The notes under the pieces were generated by a model, which was not told where the DNA came from, searched no databases, and was given only the letters and a program-made list of their open reading frames with translations. Of a stretch of 64,000 bases of DNA, positions 29,043-41,091 are shown one piece after another. The stretch comes from Escherichia coli (GTDB lineage: Bacteria > Pseudomonadota > Gammaproteobacteria > Enterobacterales > Enterobacteriaceae). A program made the translations under genes and the position numbers. How positions within the stretch are numbered: the first letter of the stretch is position 1; the number at the start of each line of letters is the position of its first letter. The stretch is from assembly GCF_003018255.1 (NCBI RefSeq), contig NZ_CP027440.1; one strand, given 5' to 3'.

Positions 29043-29508
29043 AACAAACAACTCCTTGTCCGGAGAACCCCAATGGGGAAAACGAAATTCAATACCGTCG
29101 GTAATGACTAAAGGCAGGCGAGAAGGACAAATGTACTGAATTTCATGTAATCAACCACACTGCCTGTGAACACACAGACAGAGAAATACCTTCTGACTCC
29201 AGGTCAGAATGTATAACGATTACAAATAGTCATCAGCACATTACACCTCTTGAATTGATGGGTTGCATAGAAAATATACACCTTAAGTGTAATTAAAATT
29301 TGCGGTTAATCAAAAGAGTGCGGTGGAAAGGGGAATATCTGCCGGGTACAGGAAATGTAAAATGCGAGCCTGTTTCCGGAAAAATGTATCGTTTGCAGAA
29401 GAATAAAAATAGCCTGGAAACCGCCTCGGGGAATAGGAAATAGCCAGGTGTGAATGGCTTTGTTAGTCGCTAAAGTTGGGCCATCTTATCTACAGGTGAC
29501 GGATCGCC

Positions 29509-30453
29509 ATGACAAACTTTACGACCAGCACGCCGCATGACGCATTATTTAAATCCTTTCTCACACACTCTGACACCGCGCGGGATTTTATGGAGATCCA
29601 CTTACCCAAAGATTTACGTGAACTGTGCGATCTCGATAGCTTAAAACTGGAATCCGCCAGCTTTGTCGATGAAAAATTGCGGGCGCTACATTCCGATATT
29701 CTGTGGTCGGTAAAGACCCGTGAAGGCGATGGCTATATTTATGTAGTGATTGAACATCAGAGCCGTGAGGATATTCATATGGCCTTTCGTCTGATGCGAT
29801 ATTCCATGGCGGTGATGCAGCGCCATATCGAACATGATAAACGCCGGCAGCTACCGCTGGTCATCCCGATGCTGTTTTATCACGGTAGCCGTAGTCCTTA
29901 TCCCTGGTCCCTGTGCTGGCTGGACGAATTTGCCGACCCGACTACCGCACGGAAGCTTTATACCGCCGCGTTCCCGCTGGTGGATATCACTGTCGTGCCA
30001 GACGACGAGATTGTGCAGCATCGCAGAGTCGCCCTGTTGGAGTTGATCCAAAAGCATATTCGCCAGCGCGATCTGATGGGGCTTATTGACCAACTGGTAG
30101 TATTACTGGTTACAGAGTGTGCTAATGACAGCCAGATAACTGCGCTGTTAAATTACATTTTACTGACTGGTGATGAAGCGCGTTTTAATGAGTTTATCAG
30201 TGAAATTACCCGTCGACTGCCACAACAAAGGGAGCGAATAATGACGATTGCAGAGCGAATTCATAATGATGGATGGCTGTTAGGGATGGAAAAGGGGAAA
30301 GAAGAAGGGGAACAACGCCTCCTTAGATTGCTTTTGCAGAACGGTGCGGATCCTGAATGGATACAACGATATACTGGACTTTCGGCAGAGCAAATGCAGG
30401 CATTAGAGCAACCCTTGCCTGAAAGCAAGCGCGATCCATGGATCGAGTACTAA
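29509..30453 (+). CDS. rpnD: Recombination-promoting nuclease RpnD (Rpn / transposase_31, PD-(D/E)XK family), apparently intact
   Basis: 314-aa uninterrupted ORF with the Rpn-family core ([21 protein letters not shown]). K-12 carries this locus as the split yjiP/yjiQ pseudogene pair, as I recall. Confidence 0.8.
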
Positions 30454-30547
30454 TCAGAGACTGATGACAAACGCAAAGCTGCCTGATGTGCTACGCTTAT
30501 CAGACCTACATTACCTCTGCAATCTATTGAATTTGCGCGATTTGTAA

Positions 30548-30576
30548 GCCGGATAAGGCGTTCACGCCGCATCCGG
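30548..30576. repeat. REP element
   Basis: GCCGGATAAGGCGTTCACGCCGCATCCGG, near-identical to the copy at 15835-15866. Confidence 0.8.
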
Positions 30577-30694
30577 TATGAACAAAGCACACTTTGCCTA
30601 AGCCATGCTGGAACGTGGCGATGCCCCTGCAAAGATAAAACGAGTCACAGGCGATTCGTGAGAGGAAATCAGGGGCCTCGCCACTAATTCGAAT

Positions 30695-32544: not shown

Positions 32545-34638
32545 ATGAAAGCTACAGAAGCCCGCCTACTCGATTTTTTAAAACGTTCGCAGCAGTTTGT
32601 TATTCCCATTTATCAACGGACTTATTCATGGACAGAACAACAATGTCGGCAACTTTGGGACGACATCATTCGTGCCGGAAAGCGTGACGATATATCAGCG
32701 CATTTTATCGGTTCGGTTGTTTATATAGAGCAGGGATTGTATCAGGTTTCTGGTATTTCTCCGTTGCTGGTCATTGATGGTCAACAGCGGCTGACGACCG
32801 CAATGTTGCTGATTGAGGCTTTATCACGCCATCTTGGCGAAGACGAAGTTTTTGATGGCTTTTCAGCAATGAAATTGCGTAATTATTATTTACTCAATCC
32901 TTATGAGTCCGGCGAGAAAGGATTTAAATTACTGCTGACCGAGACTGATAAAGACAGTTTGCTGGCGTTAATAAAACAAAGACCAATGCCAGAAAACTAT
33001 TCCCATCGAATAATGGAAAACTTTACTTTCTTTGATGAACAAATTGCCAAACTCGGTGATGACTTGATCCCCTTATGTCGTGGGTTAGCAAAGTTATTAA
33101 TTGTCGATGTGGCGCTTAATCGTGGTCAGGATAATCCGCAACTGATTTTTGAAAGTATGAACTCCACCGGTAAGGCGTTAAGTCAGGCCGATCTGGTGCG
33201 CAATTTTATTCTGATGGGCCTCGAACCAGAGCATCAAACCCGGTTGTATGAAGATCACTGGCGTCCAATGGAAGTCGCTTTTGGTCAGCAAGGTTACAGC
33301 GAATATTTTGACAGCTTTATGCGTCATTATCTGACGGTAAAAACGGGGGAGATCCCTCGGACAGATGAAGTCTATGAGGCATTTAAACTCCATGCCCGCA
33401 GCCAGAGTGTTGCTGAAAAAGGCGTAGATCGGCTGGTTGAAGATATTCACATCTACGCGGAGTATTACTGTGCAATGGCATTGGGAAAAGAAAGTGACAA
33501 ATCGCTTGCTACGGCTTTTCAGGATTTGCGCGAGTTAAAGGTCGATGTGGCATATCCTTTCTTACTGGCGCTTTATCATGACTATAAAAATGGCGATTTG
33601 CCTCACGAAGATTTCCTGAGCATAATTCGTTTAATTGAATCTTATGTTTTCCGCCGTGCAGTATGTGCGATTCCGACGAATTCTCTTAACAAGACGTTTG
33701 CCACTTTTTATAAAGTCATTAATAAAGAAAAATATCTGGAAAGTATTCAGGTACATTTTCTGAATCTGCCTTCATATCGTCGTTTCCCCAACGATGATGA
33801 ATTTAAACGGGAATTAAAAGTTCGCGATCTCTATAACTTCCGTAGTCGCAGCTACTGGTTACGACGACTGGAAAACGATAAACGCAGAGAGCGCGTGGAA
33901 GAGTTTACGATTGAGCATATTATGCCGCAGAACGAAAATCTGTCGGCTAAATGGCGCGAAGAGTTGGGAAGCGACTGGCAGCGTGTGCATAAAGAATTGT
34001 TACATACGTTGGGGAATCTCACTTTAACGCGCTATAACTCCCGCTACAGTGACAGACCTTTCGCGGAAAAACGCGATATTGAAGACGGCTTTAAGCATAG
34101 CCCGCTTTATTTGAATATCGGTCTTGGACAGTGCGAAAAATGGGATGAAGCCGCCATTCACGCCCGAGCCGATCGTCTGGCCGATCTTGCGGTTCAGGTT
34201 TGGCAAGCGCCTGCTCTTCCTGAAGAGGTTTTAGCTGTTTATCGGGCGCAGCCGGAGAACAAAACCAGTTACAGCCTGAGTGATTATCCTTTTCTTGCTG
34301 ATGGTTCGCATAGCCGGGTGTTATTTGATCATCTTCGCGATGAAGTTATGCGCCTGGACGCAGGGATCACGCAGGAAGTATTGAAGCTCTATATTGCGTT
34401 TAAAGCTGAAACGAATTTTGTTGATGTTGTGCCGCAAAAAAGCCGACTGCGATTGTCGCTTAATATGCAGTTTCATGAACTGGTCGATCCGAAAGGTATT
34501 GCCAAAGATGTGACAAATGTTGGGCGATGGGGCAATGGCGATGTGGAAATTGGTTTCAGTGACCTCGCACAACTTCCTTACATTATGGGATTAATTCGTC
34601 AGGCATTTGAAAAACAGATGGAGAACGCGTTGGTATAA
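32545..34638 (+). CDS. DUF262 (ParB-like NTPase) + DUF1524 (His-Me finger nuclease) fusion protein; GmrSD-like putative type IV modification-dependent restriction endonuclease
   Basis: 697-aa ORF. N-terminal DUF262 hallmarks (FVIPIYQRTYSW and the DGQQR motif in LLVIDGQQRLTTAMLL); C-terminal DUF1524 hallmark (FTIEHIMPQN ... LGNLTLTRYN). Sits in the slot that holds yjiT/yjiV/mcrBC in K-12. Confidence 0.8.
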   Translation: MKATEARLLDFLKRSQQFVIPIYQRTYSWTEQQCRQLWDDIIRAGKRDDISAHFIGSVVYIEQGLYQVSGISPLLVIDGQQRLTTAMLLIEALSRHLGEDEVFDGFSAMKLRNYYLLNPYESGEKGFKLLLTETDKDSLLALIKQRPMPENYSHRIMENFTFFDEQIAKLGDDLIPLCRGLAKLLIVDVALNRGQDNPQLIFESMNSTGKALSQADLVRNFILMGLEPEHQTRLYEDHWRPMEVAFGQQGYSEYFDSFMRHYLTVKTGEIPRTDEVYEAFKLHARSQSVAEKGVDRLVEDIHIYAEYYCAMALGKESDKSLATAFQDLRELKVDVAYPFLLALYHDYKNGDLPHEDFLSIIRLIESYVFRRAVCAIPTNSLNKTFATFYKVINKEKYLESIQVHFLNLPSYRRFPNDDEFKRELKVRDLYNFRSRSYWLRRLENDKRRERVEEFTIEHIMPQNENLSAKWREELGSDWQRVHKELLHTLGNLTLTRYNSRYSDRPFAEKRDIEDGFKHSPLYLNIGLGQCEKWDEAAIHARADRLADLAVQVWQAPALPEEVLAVYRAQPENKTSYSLSDYPFLADGSHSRVLFDHLRDEVMRLDAGITQEVLKLYIAFKAETNFVDVVPQKSRLRLSLNMQFHELVDPKGIAKDVTNVGRWGNGDVEIGFSDLAQLPYIMGLIRQAFEKQMENALV

Positions 34639-34684: not shown

Positions 34685-35026
34685 TCAGGCGACTTTCTGT
34701 TTACCCGCAATCACCCCAATAAATTCCCGCACCTGCTTTTGTTTACGCGCCGACAGCTTGCACACCTGGCGCAGCGACTGCATTAGCTCGCTCTCTTCGG
34801 GGGCGGGTGGTTGGGCGGTGAGGACAATACAGCCTTCCATCACTTTGACAGCTATCGCCGTGCCGGTGGCAAAACCGGCGGCTTCCAGCCACTGACCTTT
34901 CAGGGTGATGGCGGGAATACGGCTGTAATCCGGGTAGCGACTCGCATAACTCACGGTTAATTGACGGTTATTTGCCGGGGAGACTTCTGCTTCGAACGGT
35001 TGTGCAATAGAATGCGTGTCAGTCAT
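34685..35026 (-). CDS. symE: SymE, SOS-induced toxin-like protein (type I toxin-antitoxin, AbrB-fold endoribonuclease)
   Basis: Start trimmed to [52 protein letters not shown] (113 aa); lies immediately upstream of hsdS as in K-12. Confidence 0.9.
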
Positions 35027-35100
35027 AACTGCTATTCCTTGAAAATAGTGATTGTGATGAGCGGTGCGGGTGTGTTGGCGCACATCCGCACCGCGCTAAA
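35015..35100 (+). ncRNA. symR: Putative SymR antisense sRNA (antitoxin) overlapping the symE start and 5' UTR; boundaries approximate
   Basis: Known arrangement: SymR is transcribed antisense across the symE translation start. A TAGAAT -10-like hexamer at 35008-35013 and a strong stem-loop at 35061-35094 are present on the plus strand. Ends were not mapped. Confidence 0.3.
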
Positions 35101-35119: not shown

Positions 35120-35246
35120 TAAATACAGGGAAAGTCCAGCTAAAAATTAATGAAAATAAGATAGAAGTTAGCGTGAAATATAATTTTTGGTGATGTGAAT
35201 AAAGCGGCTATTGAGCCGCTTTATTGGTTTTATGAGGGCGAGAAAA

Positions 35247-36983
35247 TTAGTTTATCGCCGCGTTAGTCAGTGCGTCTGCAAGGTGCAGTTGGGTTTGTTG
35301 GGCGGTTTTTATACGAGTTTTAAGCTTATCGCATAGTTCATGAAGTAAACCTACTTGTGAAAATATTCTATATTGTTCAGTTAATGGTGGGCATGGGAAT
35401 GAATACAACATTACACTATTTGCTGATAGGTTGGGTTGTGCTGAGCCATTATCAAAGCGGTAAATCTGTGAGCGCCCAAATGGACTGGTTAAATAATTAT
35501 AAATATACCCTCCCATTTCTGTGATAAATGGTCTAATGATCATTAGTGATGAGGCAATAGCTCCTGTTTCATAGGGGGTTACAAAGGCAGTTTTACCAAA
35601 AGTTGCTCCTCGTAGGCAATAAACCAAATCACCTTTTTGAATTTTCCCACTTCTTAATTCATTAAATTTTCCTTCGGTTATAAAATTCATTTCTGTAACC
35701 GTAAGTGTACCATTTTTTTCTATATGTCCAGTATTGATCCAAGGAATACCTTGAGAAACATACTCATTTTTATTGGGATAATTACTTCCACGATCGCCAT
35801 TTATAAACTCTGATGTTAAACCAAATTTACACCACTCCCACCCTTCCGGCAGTTCAAACGGTTTTTCCTCATTGCTAATTGGCGGTAGTGGTTTTTGTTT
35901 TTTTATTTTCCCTTCTTTCACCAGTTGAGCTTTTTCCTGCGCAATTCGTTTGAGCAGTTCAGAGGCGGGTTCGTCATTCGGATCCTGCGGCACAAGTTTA
36001 CCCATTACGGCCAGTTGAAGAATGGTCTGTTTTAACGCATCCACGCTGGCTTCGGTGGTAAATAGGGTGTCGAAATGCTCGCTAATACGCGCCCAGTTTT
36101 CAGCCAGTTCCTCGGCGTTTTGGCTGTCTGTAAGCGTTCCCAACAGGGTTTCAACCAGTTGCTGATGTGCGTCCAGACTGGTCAGGGATTGCTGTTCCAG
36201 TTGGTCGCAGAGAACTGTAAGTTCTCTGATTTTTCTGACAATTTGTTGTTGTTCATTTATAGGCGGTAAAGCGATTATCTGTTGTTCCATTTTTTCTTTA
36301 GTCATATGGAGCATTGCAATACCGTTACCTTGCGATTTTATTTTATCTGTAATGGATAAAAGAAAATCATGTATAAAATATTTGTTTGAGTACTCTTCTG
36401 CAAATAAATTTAATTTCCATATATGGTAGTGATAAATTACTTTTTCTCCTGTCCAAATGAATGGCCCAAAAGATGCGGACCAAGCGTATATTAAATCACC
36501 ATTATTTATATATTTGTTTTCGTCTAATTGGAGGTCAGAGTAATACCACTCATTTGATGTGAATAGATTACCAACACGCAGCAAAGGAGTGCCTGTTTGA
36601 AGCATTTCATGTTTTTTATATGCTCGACCGTTAATAACCTCCATGAGATCTGCAACCCGCACCCACTCCCATCCCTCCGGCAATTCAAACGGCTTCTCTT
36701 CCTCGCTAATTCCTGGCAGTGGTTTTTGCTTTTTAATTTTACCTTGCTTCACCAGCTCTGCTTTTTCCGCAGCAATACGCTTCAGCAGCTCCGACGCCGG
36801 TTCATCATTCGGATCCTGCGGCACCAGTTTACCGCGCACCGCCAGTTCCAGAATCAGCTCACGCAATTTCTTAATGCCATACAAATCAATTTTACCGGAA
36901 CTGCCGCGCCCGGCGGTGGAACGGGTTTGCAACGCCGAGGTCCAGGTTTCCATATGATCAACGATCAGCTTTTCCACACTCAT
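35247..36983 (-). CDS. hsdS: Type I restriction-modification specificity subunit HsdS (non-EcoKI allele; family-IB-like domain order)
   Basis: 578-aa ORF with two variable target-recognition regions. A conserved segment occurs twice, at the N-terminus and in the centre (GKLVPQDPNDEPASELLKRIA.EKA.LVK.GKIKKQKPLP.IS.EEKPFELPEGWEW). Its ATG overlaps the hsdM stop (ATGA). Confidence 0.88.
   Translation of the reverse strand: MSVEKLIVDHMETWTSALQTRSTAGRGSSGKIDLYGIKKLRELILELAVRGKLVPQDPNDEPASELLKRIAAEKAELVKQGKIKKQKPLPGISEEEKPFELPEGWEWVRVADLMEVINGRAYKKHEMLQTGTPLLRVGNLFTSNEWYYSDLQLDENKYINNGDLIYAWSASFGPFIWTGEKVIYHYHIWKLNLFAEEYSNKYFIHDFLLSITDKIKSQGNGIAMLHMTKEKMEQQIIALPPINEQQQIVRKIRELTVLCDQLEQQSLTSLDAHQQLVETLLGTLTDSQNAEELAENWARISEHFDTLFTTEASVDALKQTILQLAVMGKLVPQDPNDEPASELLKRIAQEKAQLVKEGKIKKQKPLPPISNEEKPFELPEGWEWCKFGLTSEFINGDRGSNYPNKNEYVSQGIPWINTGHIEKNGTLTVTEMNFITEGKFNELRSGKIQKGDLVYCLRGATFGKTAFVTPYETGAIASSLMIIRPFITEMGGYIYNYLTSPFGRSQIYRFDNGSAQPNLSANSVMLYSFPCPPLTEQYRIFSQVGLLHELCDKLKTRIKTAQQTQLHLADALTNAAIN
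35832..36020. repeat. Internal direct repeat of hsdS, copy 2 (central conserved region)
   Basis: About 190 bp of high DNA identity to 36663-36852, including the shared core TCATTCGGATCCTGCGGCAC. Confidence 0.8.
36663..36852. repeat. Internal direct repeat of hsdS, copy 1 (N-terminal conserved region)
   Basis: Direct repeat partner of 35832-36020. Confidence 0.8.
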
Positions 36984-38452
36984 CAGTTAACCTCCTTGCC
37001 AGACAGCGCAGCGCCAAGAATATCGCGCAGTTGATTACGCAGCGTCTGGATCTCCGCCTGCTGTTTTGCATACTGCGCTAACAGTTCGTCCGGGTCATGG
37101 CTGACGGTTTCCGCCTGATGTGGGTTTTTAATATCCAGATTGAAGTTACGCGCAATCACGTCATCAATGCTGACTTTCCACGCTTGCTCATTCTCGATGC
37201 GGCTGGCAAAACCATCGGCCTCGTTACCCCACCAGTCAATCTCCGCCTGAAACTCTTCGAACTTCATCGGCTTGGTTTTACTGTAATTTTTCACGCCCGC
37301 CGGATACGGATGCTCATAGAACCAAATCTCTTTGGTTGGCTGACCTTTGGTAAAAAACAACAGGTTGGTTTTAATGCCGGTATAGGGGTTAAACACACCA
37401 TTCGGTAAACGCACGATGGTATGCAGATTGCACTCTTCGGTAAGCAGCTTTTTGATTTTGGTTTTAACGCCTTCGCCAAATAGCGTGCCATCCGGCAATA
37501 CCACCGCCGCGCGACCGTTTTTCGCCAGTACTTCCACAATCAGTTGCAGAAACAGATCCGCTGTTTCGCGGGTTTGCATCTCTGCCGGAAAGTTCTTCTC
37601 AATACCGTCTTCTTCCGTGCCACCAAACGGCGGGTTGGTAACAATGACATCCAGTTGCTCATCCCAGGAGGAAAGCGGTTTGTTCAGGGTGTTGTCGTGA
37701 CGAATTTGTACAGGCACTTCAATGCCGTGCAGCAGCATATTGGTGGTCGCCAGCAGGTGCGGAAGCTGTTTTTTCTCGACACCGTGGATCTGTTGTTGCA
37801 GCGTCTGATGATCGGCGACGCTCTTCACGTATTTGTTCTTTACATGATCGAACGCGCAGGCAAGAAAACCGCCCGTACCGCAGGCCGGGTCCATAATGGA
37901 TTCGCCGAGTTTCGGATCAACGCGATCCACCATAAAGCGAGTGACGGCGCGTGGCGTATAGAATTCGCCAGCATTGCCCGCAGATTGCAGATCTTTAAGG
38001 ATCTGTTCGTAAATATCACCAAACAGATGGCGTTCGCTGGCGCTGGTAAAGTCAATTTCGTTCAGCTTGTTGATCACCTGGCGCAGTAGCGTACCGTTTT
38101 TCATATAGTTATAGGCATCGCTGAACGCCTGCTTCACCACGTAGCCGCGTGGGTTTTTATCGATAGGCGCAGTGAGGTTTTTCAACGCCGGGAACAGATC
38201 ATCATTAACGAATTCCAGCAGGGAATCACCGGTAATGCCCTGAGCGTTTGCGGCCCAACTGCGCCATAAATAACGCTGTGGGATCGGATATTGATAGTTA
38301 TCCTGCTCCAGTTCCAGCGCCTCTTCCTGGGCATCGAAGATTTTCAAAAACAGCAGCCAGGAGAGCTGACCGAGACGCTGCGCATCGCCATCCACACCGG
38401 CATCTTTGCGCATAATATCTTGTAATGATTTGATTACTGAACTGATAGACAT
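36983..38452 (-). CDS. hsdM: Type I restriction-modification N6-adenine DNA methyltransferase HsdM (non-EcoKI allele)
   Basis: SAM-binding motif I (DPACGTGGFL) and catalytic motif IV (VVTNPPFGG). Start trimmed to MSISSVIKSL (489 aa). Confidence 0.88.
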   Translation of the reverse strand: MSISSVIKSLQDIMRKDAGVDGDAQRLGQLSWLLFLKIFDAQEEALELEQDNYQYPIPQRYLWRSWAANAQGITGDSLLEFVNDDLFPALKNLTAPIDKNPRGYVVKQAFSDAYNYMKNGTLLRQVINKLNEIDFTSASERHLFGDIYEQILKDLQSAGNAGEFYTPRAVTRFMVDRVDPKLGESIMDPACGTGGFLACAFDHVKNKYVKSVADHQTLQQQIHGVEKKQLPHLLATTNMLLHGIEVPVQIRHDNTLNKPLSSWDEQLDVIVTNPPFGGTEEDGIEKNFPAEMQTRETADLFLQLIVEVLAKNGRAAVVLPDGTLFGEGVKTKIKKLLTEECNLHTIVRLPNGVFNPYTGIKTNLLFFTKGQPTKEIWFYEHPYPAGVKNYSKTKPMKFEEFQAEIDWWGNEADGFASRIENEQAWKVSIDDVIARNFNLDIKNPHQAETVSHDPDELLAQYAKQQAEIQTLRNQLRDILGAALSGKEVN

Positions 38453-38518
38453 GTTGTATTCCATGAAAAACAAGGCCTTCTGCAACATGATGGTTGCAGA
38501 AGGCGCAAAAGAGAGTTG

Positions 38519-40951
38519 TTAAGCAGAGCGGGGCGGTAATTGGTAGATTTCGTTTTCCAGCTCGCTGAGCGCCTGATTATACCCGTTACGGTCGCCAAAT
38601 CCGGTTTTAATAATCTCCGGTAAGGTGCCCATGCTGTCGAATGGTTTAAGTTTCAGCACCTGAATACTTTCGATCTCCTGTACGCCCGCATCGGCGTATT
38701 TATCCAGCAGATTATCGAGCACGGCTTGCGCTGCTTCAGAGTATTTTGTGAAGTAGTTCCGCTTGCGCACGTTCTCGGCGCGCTCTTTGCGGGTTAACGG
38801 CGGCTGACCATACACTACGTGGCAAAGCATGTCGAACGGGTCGAGATCTTTACCGACTTCTTCTGCCAGTACTTCCCAGATGATCCCCTGTTGTTCCAGC
38901 TCGTGAATGATCGCTTCTTTGCGATCGGCGTCCTGCCACTTGCGGGTAAAGTCATCCAGCGAGGCATATTCTTTGAGCAGTGTTTTGCGGGTGTAATCTT
39001 TAAAAGATTCGGTAACCAGTTTACCGTCGGCATCGTAATACTGAACACGCTGCGCAATAACGCCCACCGCTACACCGTTGACGTGAAACTTGCGGATTTT
39101 CTTCTCGTCTTCTTCCGGAAGTGGGCCGACATCATCGGTATCGGTAACCTGGTATGGTGGCGCAGGCGGTTCATCAACGCCTGTTACCTGTTCGTCGTCA
39201 TGTTCGCTGATTTCTTCGAGTTTCTCTTCAAAATCAGATTCTGGATCGGCGATATCCTCTGATGTGGTATCCATGACTTTTTCGGGAATGCCATCGAAAC
39301 GCTCATCGGCAAACAGTTCGGTGGCTTTTTTAAAGTCGAGGATGGTAAACCAGAGTTTGCCGTAACGTTCGTCGATGCGTGTACCACGACCGATAATTTG
39401 CTTGAATTTGGTCATCGACTGGATGTTCTGGTCCAGTACTACCAGTTTGCAGGTTTTAGCATCCACACCAGTGGTCATCAGCTCTGAAGTGGTCGCGATA
39501 ACCGGGTACGCTTTTTTCGGGTTGATGAAGTTATCCAACTGAGCTTTGCCAATTTCATCATCGCCGGTGATTTTCATGACGTATTTGTCGTTCTTTTTCA
39601 CCTGCTCCGGGTTGAGATTCACCAGGGCGCGGCGCATACGTTCTGCATGATCGATGTCGTTACAGAAGACGATGGTTTTATCCATCGGGTTGGTGCGCTT
39701 GAGGTAGTCGGTAATGGTTCTGGCAACCAGTTCTGTCCGTTCGTCGATTACCATCGTGCGATCGAAATCTTTCTGGTTATAGATACGATCGTCGATCACT
39801 TCGCCGTTTAAGTCAGTTTGCCCTTTGGTTGGGCGCCAGCCTTGCAGATCAACATCAATATCAACACGGACAACTTTATAAGGGGCGAGGAAGCCGTCTT
39901 CGATCCCTTCTTTTAGCGAGTAGACGTAAACCGGATCGCCGAAGTAATCCGTGCTGGAGACTTCATGCGTCTCTTTTGGCGTGGCGGTTAAGCCAATTTG
40001 GGTGGCGGAACTGAAATAATCAAGGATCTCTCGCCAGGCGCTGTCTTCGGATGCGCTGCCGCGATGGCATTCGTCGATCACGATCAGATCGAAGAAATCT
40101 GGTGCGACTTGTTTAAACGCTTTTTGGTCTTCCTCCGGGCCAGTTATAGCCTGATAGAGCGCGAGGTGAATTTCATAAGCGGGATCAATGGTGCGTCCGC
40201 TGACTTTGGTCATTGCCGTACCAAATGGCTGGAAATCATTATTTTTGGTTTGGTCGACCAGAATGTTGCGATCGGCAAGGAACAAAATGCGTTTTTTATT
40301 TTTTGATTTCCACAGGCGCCAGATGATCTGGAATGCGGTATAGGTTTTCCCTGTTCCGGTCGCCATGACCAGCAGAACGCGGTTTTGCCCGTTGGAGACG
40401 GCTTCAATGGTTTTGTTGATTGCCTGAAGCTGGTAATAACGAGGCGATTTGCCGCTGCCATCGTCGTAATAGTCCTGAGTAATCACCGGAAGCTGAGCTT
40501 GTGTGTATCCTTTCCAGAGGCAGAATTTTTGCCAGAGTTCAGCGGGGGAGGGGAAGTCATCCAGCGTTATTTGCTTTTCAAGGCATTCACCTTCAGCTGC
40601 GGTGGCATCGCGGAAGATAAAGCCATCACCGTTGGTGGCAAAAACAAAAGGAACGTCCAGCAGGCGCGCATATTCAATGCCCTGTTGCATCCCTTTGCCA
40701 ATTTCATGTTTGTTGGCTTTTGCTTCAATCACGGCTAAGGGAATGCCTGGTTTGTGATACAGCACGATGTCAGCAGATTTTACCGTTCTGCGTGCCGCAA
40801 CTTTACCACGTACGATGACTTTACCGTTCCGGAGTTTGACCTCCTGTCTGATTTGCGTTGTGTTGTCCCAGCCTGCATTGAGAATGGCTGGCATAACGCA
40901 TTTGGTAATGATGTCTGCTTCCGTCAGGTTACTTAGGTTCAGTTCCGCCAT
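38519..40951 (-). CDS. hsdR: Type I restriction-modification endonuclease/translocase HsdR (810 aa, non-EcoKI; family-IB-like)
   Basis: N-terminal PD-(D/E)XK nuclease region ([19 protein letters not shown]), SF2 helicase Walker A (MATGTGKT) and motif II (DECHR). Much shorter than the roughly 1170-aa EcoKI HsdR. Confidence 0.88.
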
Positions 40952-41091
40952 GGGGTGTTCTCATCTAAATGCGATGCGTAAATTCTACACAGAAAAATAG
41001 ATGAATTCATCTGTTCAAAGAGTATTATCAGCGTTAAGTCACTGTTTTAAAGGTATTCTTGAGTTTCATCAATAGCTGGATAAGGATTCAT

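Follow-up and report, generated by a model that had tools for sequence, protein, structure and literature searches.

A type I restriction-modification locus of Escherichia coli assigned to family IB, with a specificity subunit combining target recognition domains of two lineages

Family IB among type I restriction-modification systems was defined in the 1980s, the original family criteria being complementation, antibody cross-reaction and DNA hybridisation with the EcoAI subunits, and the hsd genes of families IA and IB are known to be allelic. Here we describe a locus on the minus strand of Escherichia coli contig NZ_CP027440.1 (GCF_003018255.1), of which a stretch of 64,000 nt (hereafter the window) was analysed. 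Positions 35247–40951 of the window hold the genes hsdR, hsdM and hsdS, which encode the restriction, modification and specificity subunits of a type I system (Table 1).

Among the closest described systems, EcoCFTI of strain CFT073 is of type IB and was found in transformation assays to restrict GAG(N7)GTCA, the EcoAI site (PMC8287963). The HsdR and HsdM subunits of CFT073 are 99% identical to those of EcoAO83I, which are in turn 99% and 98% identical to those of EcoAI, and 26% and 28% identity is given for EcoKI; as a rule, subunits exceed ∼90% identity within a family and share 17–33% between families (PMC2481252). The type IB specificity subunit has the permuted order D2-S1-D1-S2 rather than S1-D1-S2-D2 (PMC3874165), with a direct repeat that starts near residues 50 and 325 (PMC3874165, PMC2481252). 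Type IB systems also have a shorter HsdM and a longer HsdS than other families (PMC3510504), and in all the type IB enzymes listed the methylated adenines lie 9 bp apart (PMC3874165, PMC12707154). Type IB accounts for ∼11% of enterobacterial immigration control regions (PMC12707154).

Assignment of the hsd locus to family IB

The locus is filled exactly by three co-directional open reading frames (ORFs) in the order hsdR-hsdM-hsdS, all intact and of full length, with no space for further genes. In our view this is almost certainly an intact, chromosomally encoded type I restriction-modification system that belongs to family IB (the EcoAI family) and that is allelic, within the immigration control region, to the EcoKI hsd genes of K-12. 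Family membership was tested against reference loci taken from complete genomes, with EcoCFTI of CFT073 serving as a proxy for the EcoAI prototype. HsdR and HsdM are identical to their EcoCFTI counterparts at 805 of 810 (99.4%) and 487 of 489 (99.6%) residues, respectively, versus 27% and 29% identity to EcoKI of K-12, and the locus thus falls within family IB and outside the EcoKI family by the published identity rule. The subunit lengths follow the type IB trait as well, with 489 aa for HsdM versus 529 in K-12, 578 versus 464 aa for HsdS, and 810 versus 1170 aa for HsdR. A preliminary description of the locus had proposed an IB-like system from a family other than that of EcoKI, pointing to an HsdM of about 489 aa, to an HsdR of 810 aa that is far shorter than the 1170 aa of K-12, and to a conserved HsdS segment duplicated at the N-terminus and centre. 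The ORF coordinates agree with these lengths, the duplication is found as described, and the best matches of HsdR and HsdM lie with the near-identical EcoCFTI subunits and not in family IA or IC.

Profile searches point the same way. HsdR matched the NCBIfam model NF046051, "EcoAI/FtnUII family type I restriction enzyme subunit R", over model positions 1–768 of 768 with 1191.8 bits (cutoff 550). Its Pfam domains are HSDR_N, ResIII, Helicase_C and a C-terminal EcoEI_R_C (residues 648–803, E = 1.7e-36), and the PADLOC model REase_I PDLC03049 spans residues 1–810. The nuclease triad D61/E76/K78 is intact, as are the helicase motifs GTGKT (199–203), DECH (293–296), TATP (322–325) and GRGTR (521–525). 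HsdM carries the S-adenosylmethionine-binding motif DPACGTGGF (188–196) and the catalytic motif NPPF (273–276), and is matched by PADLOC MTase_I PDLC03021 at 1–480 (profile of 491 positions). The nearest solved relative of HsdR is an N-terminal fragment of the Vibrio vulnificus HsdR (3h1t, E = 1e-157).

The permuted layout of type IB was also found in HsdS, which reads as a conserved block, a first target recognition domain (TRD1), a second conserved block, a second target recognition domain (TRD2) and a short conserved tail of only ∼16 residues. Two Pfam Methylase_S domains lie at residues 102–269 and 396–549, and PADLOC Specificity_I PDLC03179 was matched over its full 589 positions. Residues 46–107 and 323–384 are identical at 55 of 62 positions with a fixed offset of 277 residues, and at the DNA level hsdS contains a direct repeat of 192 nt, 80% identical, at a spacing of 831 nt. 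The G+C content is ∼0.49–0.51 over hsdR and hsdM and 0.39 in the variable parts of hsdS.

An alternative is that the locus belongs to another type I family (IA, EcoKI-like; IC, EcoR124I-like; ID; or IE) and that its short HsdR is incidental. The general type I architecture is common to all families, and HsdR has a weak match to the EcoKI-type model NF008521, although at 216.6 bits this lies below the cutoff of 729. Such a reading would leave unexplained the divergence from EcoKI set against the near-identity to the type IB EcoCFTI, a type IB equivalog score of over twice its cutoff, and the domain order of HsdS, which is that of family IB; furthermore, no EcoR124I HsdR chain in the PDB was matched by HsdR at E ≤ 0.001. 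Membership in type IA is likewise contradicted by the low subunit identities, the sub-threshold NF008521 score and the permuted S subunit. We therefore give an affiliation with any of these other families a negligible probability. Family IB is supported on every sequence-based criterion that could be tested, and, because hsdM-hsdR is 98.5% identical in nucleotide sequence to CFT073, hybridisation with EcoAI-family genes can be added as a safe prediction.

Table 1. Positions in the window of the features of the hsd locus and of neighbouring genes
Feature	Position	Strand	Basis
hsdR, 810 aa, type IB restriction/translocase subunit	38519..40951	-	ORF; NCBIfam, Pfam, PADLOC
Hairpin, 12-bp stem and T-run, between hsdR stop and hsdM start	38465..38504	-	terminator scan, RNA fold
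hsdM, 489 aa, N6-adenine methyltransferase subunit	36983..38452	-	RefSeq start; PADLOC; motifs
hsdM/hsdS junction	36981..36997	-	sequence read directly
hsdS, 578 aa, specificity subunit	35247..36983	-	Pfam, PADLOC, alignment with CFT073, O104:H4 and O26 HsdS
HsdS repeat copy 1, N-terminal conserved region, ∼residues 44–107	36663..36854	-	direct repeat
TRD1, residues 108–258	36210..36662	-	identical to TRD1 of O104:H4 2011C-3493, 55989 and HUSEC2011 HsdS
HsdS repeat copy 2, central conserved region, ∼residues 321–384	35832..36023	-	direct repeat
TRD2, residues 385–562	35298..35831	-	essentially identical to TRD2 of O26:H11 and O111:H11 HsdS
Hairpin between symE and hsdS	35198..35225		
symR antisense RNA	35021..35097	+	Rfam RF01809, 91.7 bits
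symE toxin gene, together with symR	34685..35097		NCBIfam, 223.9 bits
GmrSD/DUF262-type ORF, 697 aa, intact	32545..34638	+	PADLOC
Rpn-family recombination-promoting nuclease gene	29345..30595		94% identity to CFT073 gene
Membrane-protein gene, 322 aa	41092..42060	+	

The chromosomal position was read from the flanking genes. The window has the order yjiR, (yjiS), a GmrSD-type gene, symE/symR, hsdS, hsdM, hsdR, a hypothetical gene, yjiA, yjiX and btsT, and in the same frame K-12 has yjiR...mcrCB, symE/symR, hsdS, hsdM, hsdR, mrr and yjiA. Judged by this order, the locus is in the immigration control region and is allelic to the EcoKI hsd genes. It is also common: the locus query was matched by 1002 of 5426 complete E. 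coli genomes (18%), with at least 80% of the query covered in 920. Sequences identical to the HsdR, HsdM and HsdS described here have been deposited on 53, 711 and 569 public contigs, respectively, and strain 2014C-3338 carries an identical or near-identical locus whose hsdR is named "EcoAI/FtnUII family" in RefSeq. The system is therefore already known, an ordinary and annotated member of family IB with nothing new about it as such, and it matters little beyond correct annotation; by the comparisons that follow, the locus is individual only in its HsdS, in which two known domains form a mosaic.

The specificity subunit and its predicted target

Compared with CFT073 HsdS, the conserved regions are almost identical and both TRDs are unrelated (19–26% identity; 19–23% for TRD1). 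TRD1 was found in 59 of the 5426 complete genomes, always at ≥99% identity. At the same threshold TRD2 occurs in 146 of them, chiefly O26:H11 and O111:H11 Shiga-toxin-producing strains, and only ∼7–8 complete genomes carry both. The hsdS allele of the window is also found in 2014C-3338 (NZ_CP027452, a long-read assembly), SCU-171, CFIAFB20140388, JNE120442, 21F61 and JNEC-KY177. In a four-way alignment the HsdS of the window corresponds to the O104 TRD1 joined to the O26 TRD2 via the common conserved regions; by this alignment it is a natural mosaic of TRDs from two E. coli lineages. By the textbook account, new type I specificities arise through recombination of TRDs, and this HsdS would provide a clean natural case of specificity change via TRD shuffling.

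Both domains have been found in other company. Among public proteins, TRD2 is paired with at least six TRD1 types, including the GAG domain of EcoAI, and TRD1 with at least four TRD2 types. The same TRD1 and TRD2 pair was also recovered at 64–87% identity from Salmonella, Hafnia, Erwinia, Vibrio cholerae and the methanotroph Methylotuvimicrobium. Because the same pair is present at these identities in such distant genera, the pairing is, on the evidence of its distribution, ancient and horizontally spread.

Sharing of TRDs with described alleles allows part of the recognition sequence to be predicted. The site recognised by EcoGIV of O104:H4 strain C227-11 is CCAC N8 TGAY, and the methylation interval of this enzyme is 9, as in other type IB enzymes (PMC3874165 Table 1). 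The O104:H4 locus in the same chromosomal slot as the one described here is of type IB. We take this immigration-control-region locus to be EcoGIV, based on the 9-bp interval and on the single type I system that C227-11 presumably carries. If that is so, the TRD1 half-site is probably CCAC or RTCA, since TRD1 is identical to that of the O104:H4 enzyme. CfrAI recognises GCA N8 GTGG and shares GTGG with the EcoGIV site; a search with the O104 TRD2 returned only unnamed fragments and no named CfrAI relative.

As both TRDs are unrelated to those of EcoAI and EcoCFTI, the predicted recognition sequence must differ from theirs in both halves, and the half-site of TRD2 is expected not to be the GTCA of EcoAI. 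The complete site is expected to consist of a half of 3–4 bp, 7–8 unspecified bases and a half of 4 bp, both halves being unlike those of EcoAI. The caution in the preliminary description, that the target is not readable from the DNA alone, holds, with one half-site now narrowed through TRD sharing.

Searches for a published specificity of either the allele or its second domain gave nothing further. The literature on E. coli, Shiga-toxin-producing E. coli and O26 methylomes yielded no published motif for any TRD2-carrying allele, the methylome literature on MRE600, ST101, ST131 and O111:H- does not cover this hsdS allele, and a full-text literature search by RefSeq accessions returned no mention. 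A sensitive nucleotide search with TRD2 detected no E. coli relative of 80–99% identity tied to strain A0 34/86 (the EcoEI/EcoAO83I ATGC type). Transfer of specificity to TRD2 from TRD1 of EcoKI (AAC) was considered and rejected, the similarity of 26% being too low. It is a lesser possibility that the combination of the O104 TRD1 with the O26 TRD2 specifies a recognition sequence not yet reported.

Expression, activity and neighbouring genes

The longest ORF for hsdM (36983–38488) encodes 501 aa from its first ATG, and the 489-aa product starts at the ATG at 38452, the start used by RefSeq. We favour the latter because the upstream in-frame ATGs lie within or just past the hairpin between hsdR and hsdM (the ATG at 38488 is in its loop) and are absent in Salmonella. 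This hairpin folds at −24.6 kcal/mol (z = −4.7), nearly fills the 66 nt that separate hsdR from hsdM, and leaves only ∼13–25 nt ahead of the hsdM start codon. The type IB loci of CFT073, Klebsiella michiganensis and Salmonella have kept it; 4 of its 12 stem pairs show compensatory changes on both sides, and it looks like an intrinsic terminator of hsdR. Hardly any space is left by the hairpin for a promoter of hsdM.

Reading of the hsdM/hsdS junction (...AAGGAGGTTAACTGATGAGT...) places the hsdM stop TGA at 36985–36983 and the hsdS start ATG at 36983–36981, and the two codons share the single base 36983 in a TGATG overlap. A strong, near-perfect Shine-Dalgarno sequence, AAGGAGG (36991–36997), lies a few bases 5′ of the hsdS ATG. 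The same 1-nt overlap is annotated in CFT073. The preliminary description was thus right about an overlap of the hsdM stop with the hsdS start and wrong about its form, having given it as ATGA, which is the junction found in EcoKI of K-12. Its further suggestion of translational coupling, which has been discussed for type I systems (PMC3510504), remains reasonable because of the TGATG overlap together with the strong Shine-Dalgarno sequence, and hsdS translation is probably coupled to that of hsdM.

By analogy with described systems, one HsdS and two HsdM would form a methyltransferase reading an asymmetric bipartite site, of which each TRD recognises one half, and would methylate one adenine per strand at the family IB interval of 9 bp (PMC3874165). 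Two HsdR would then join to give R2M2S1, which at an unmethylated site would translocate DNA at the expense of ATP and cut at a distance (PMC3874165). The M2S1 complex methylates hemimethylated or unmethylated sites, and EcoAI has been reported to methylate de novo, unlike EcoKI (PMC3874165). In families IA and IB, ClpXP degrades HsdR once the host chromosome is unmodified (PMC3874165). DNA introduced into the strain by transformation or conjugation would need to be pre-methylated or to lack target sites.

Function of the system is very probable, given the intact ORFs and motifs and a difference of only 7 residues, over HsdR and HsdM together, from the working CFT073 proteins. It could also be that the intact genes make up a silent or restriction-deficient system, which either works solely as a methylase or is not expressed. 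A consensus promoter scan of the region, in which 6 sites were found and 10 expected, was not above chance, and a terminator-like hairpin lies directly 5′ of hsdM; yet the same hairpin is present in the functional CFT073 locus, from which HsdR departs at 5 residues and HsdM at 2. All three ORFs are of full length with every catalytic motif present, and TRD1 and TRD2 are conserved at ≥99% identity in 59 and 146 complete genomes, respectively, which also speaks against silence. On balance we consider a silent or restriction-deficient system unlikely.

Some points do weigh against the interpretation as a functional family IB system with a partly predictable target. Function is deduced from sequence, and the hairpin directly 5′ of hsdM leaves little space for a promoter of hsdM-hsdS. 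The link between EcoGIV and the O104:H4 locus is an inference from the interval and from the presumed single type I system of C227-11, and both orientations of the EcoGIV half-sites for TRD1 are compatible with family IB geometry.

Roles other than plain restriction were also considered, namely a phase-variable epigenetic regulator (phasevarion) or a component of a MADS or BREX system. HsdM and HsdS match the MAD2 and MAD5 models weakly, as HsdM does BREX PglX, but the scores of 101 bits for MAD2 (cutoff 720) and 33.3 bits for MAD5 (cutoff 400) do not support membership, and the MADS or BREX reading was rejected as resting on sub-threshold matches. Phase variation was rejected in turn for want of repeats or invertons in the region: the hsd genes contain no simple-sequence tracts, no inverted repeats of at least 25 bp were found in 16 kb, and the region holds no second hsdS and no invertase. 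In addition, deletion of EcoCFTI in CFT073 changed neither gene expression nor phenotype (PMC8287963). Roles of this kind are thus highly improbable for the locus, and a plain restriction-modification system is preferred.

On the hsdR side, the place of the K-12 mrr gene is taken by a divergently transcribed gene of 31% GC for a multi-pass membrane protein, within an ORF that opens at a TTG at 41059. The protein has a conserved C-terminal beta domain with two invariant cysteines and the motif YFGFNTDKYTV...KWGF, and no match to it was found in Pfam, NCBIfam or PADLOC. Its AlphaFold model is moderate (predicted local distance difference test score, pLDDT, of 66), Foldseek against AFDB50 returned uncharacterised proteins only, and all sequence homologues detected come from Enterobacterales, its relatives being uncharacterised throughout. 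In E. coli, Salmonella and Klebsiella these homologues adjoin a type IB hsdR, even at 42% identity. The Pectobacterium and Serratia homologues come first behind the integrase of P4-like islands, and the Kosakonia homologue lies between a truncated integrase and an mrr-like gene, with symE and an hsdSMR cluster resembling type IA next in line. That the type IB hsd cassette travels with this protein as an unrecognised fourth gene is conceivable and rather doubtful. The gene could serve defence or exclusion on its own, as a new function borne on islands, which we offer as a lead and not as a finding.

On the hsdS side, the gene immediately downstream is symE, which is also the arrangement of K-12, with symR and a further hairpin at the positions given in Table 1. 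The intact GmrSD/DUF262-type ORF replaces mcrBC and is matched by PADLOC 'Orf5' over residues 10–553, with a PDC-S18-like tail at 591–688. RefSeq splits the equivalent ORF of CFT073 and O26 RM8426 into a 'partial DUF262' pseudogene and a 387-aa GmrSD protein, in a frame without an internal stop; in O104:H4 2011C-3493 the ORF is interrupted by a genuine stop at codon 239. Annotation of the near-identical strain 2014C-3338 marks the Rpn-family gene as frameshifted. Rpn-family nuclease genes belong to the toxin-like set that typifies the immigration control region.

Comparison with named systems

Compared with the named systems, the locus is closest to EcoAI of E. coli 15T- and EcoCFTI of CFT073, isoschizomers that recognise GAG N7 GTCA. 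Gene order and chromosomal slot are the same, HsdR and HsdM have the same 810 and 489 aa, the conserved regions of HsdS are nearly identical, and EcoCFTI and the window have in common the TGATG junction and the hairpin between hsdR and hsdM. The differences lie in HsdS, which has 589 aa in EcoAI and EcoCFTI versus 578 aa here, and in the two TRDs, unrelated at 19–26% identity.

Each half of the mosaic has its own counterpart. The EcoGIV/O104:H4 2011C-3493 locus is also of type IB, occupies the same slot, encodes an HsdS of 578 aa and has a TRD1 that is 100% identical at the nucleotide level; its TRD2 is unrelated (26%), and a DUF262 protein adjoins hsdR instead of the membrane protein. The hsdS allele of O26:H11 (11368, RM8426) and O111:H11 shares TRD2 at 99.4–99.6% nucleotide identity and the same membrane-protein neighbour, whereas its TRD1 is unrelated (23%) and its HsdS has 589 aa.

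EcoKI of K-12 (type IA, AAC N6 GTGC) resembles the system in its slot between symE and yjiA, in the R-M-S gene order and in overall mechanism. It differs in the sizes of HsdR, HsdM and HsdS (1170, 529 and 464 aa), in the S1-D1-S2-D2 order of the S subunit, in its ATGA junction and in a 200-bp gap between hsdR and hsdM. The flanking genes of EcoKI are mrr and mcrBC, versus the membrane-protein and GmrSD genes of the window, and its subunits share 27% (HsdR), 29% (HsdM) and 26% identity (HsdS, a local alignment of TRDs) with those described here.

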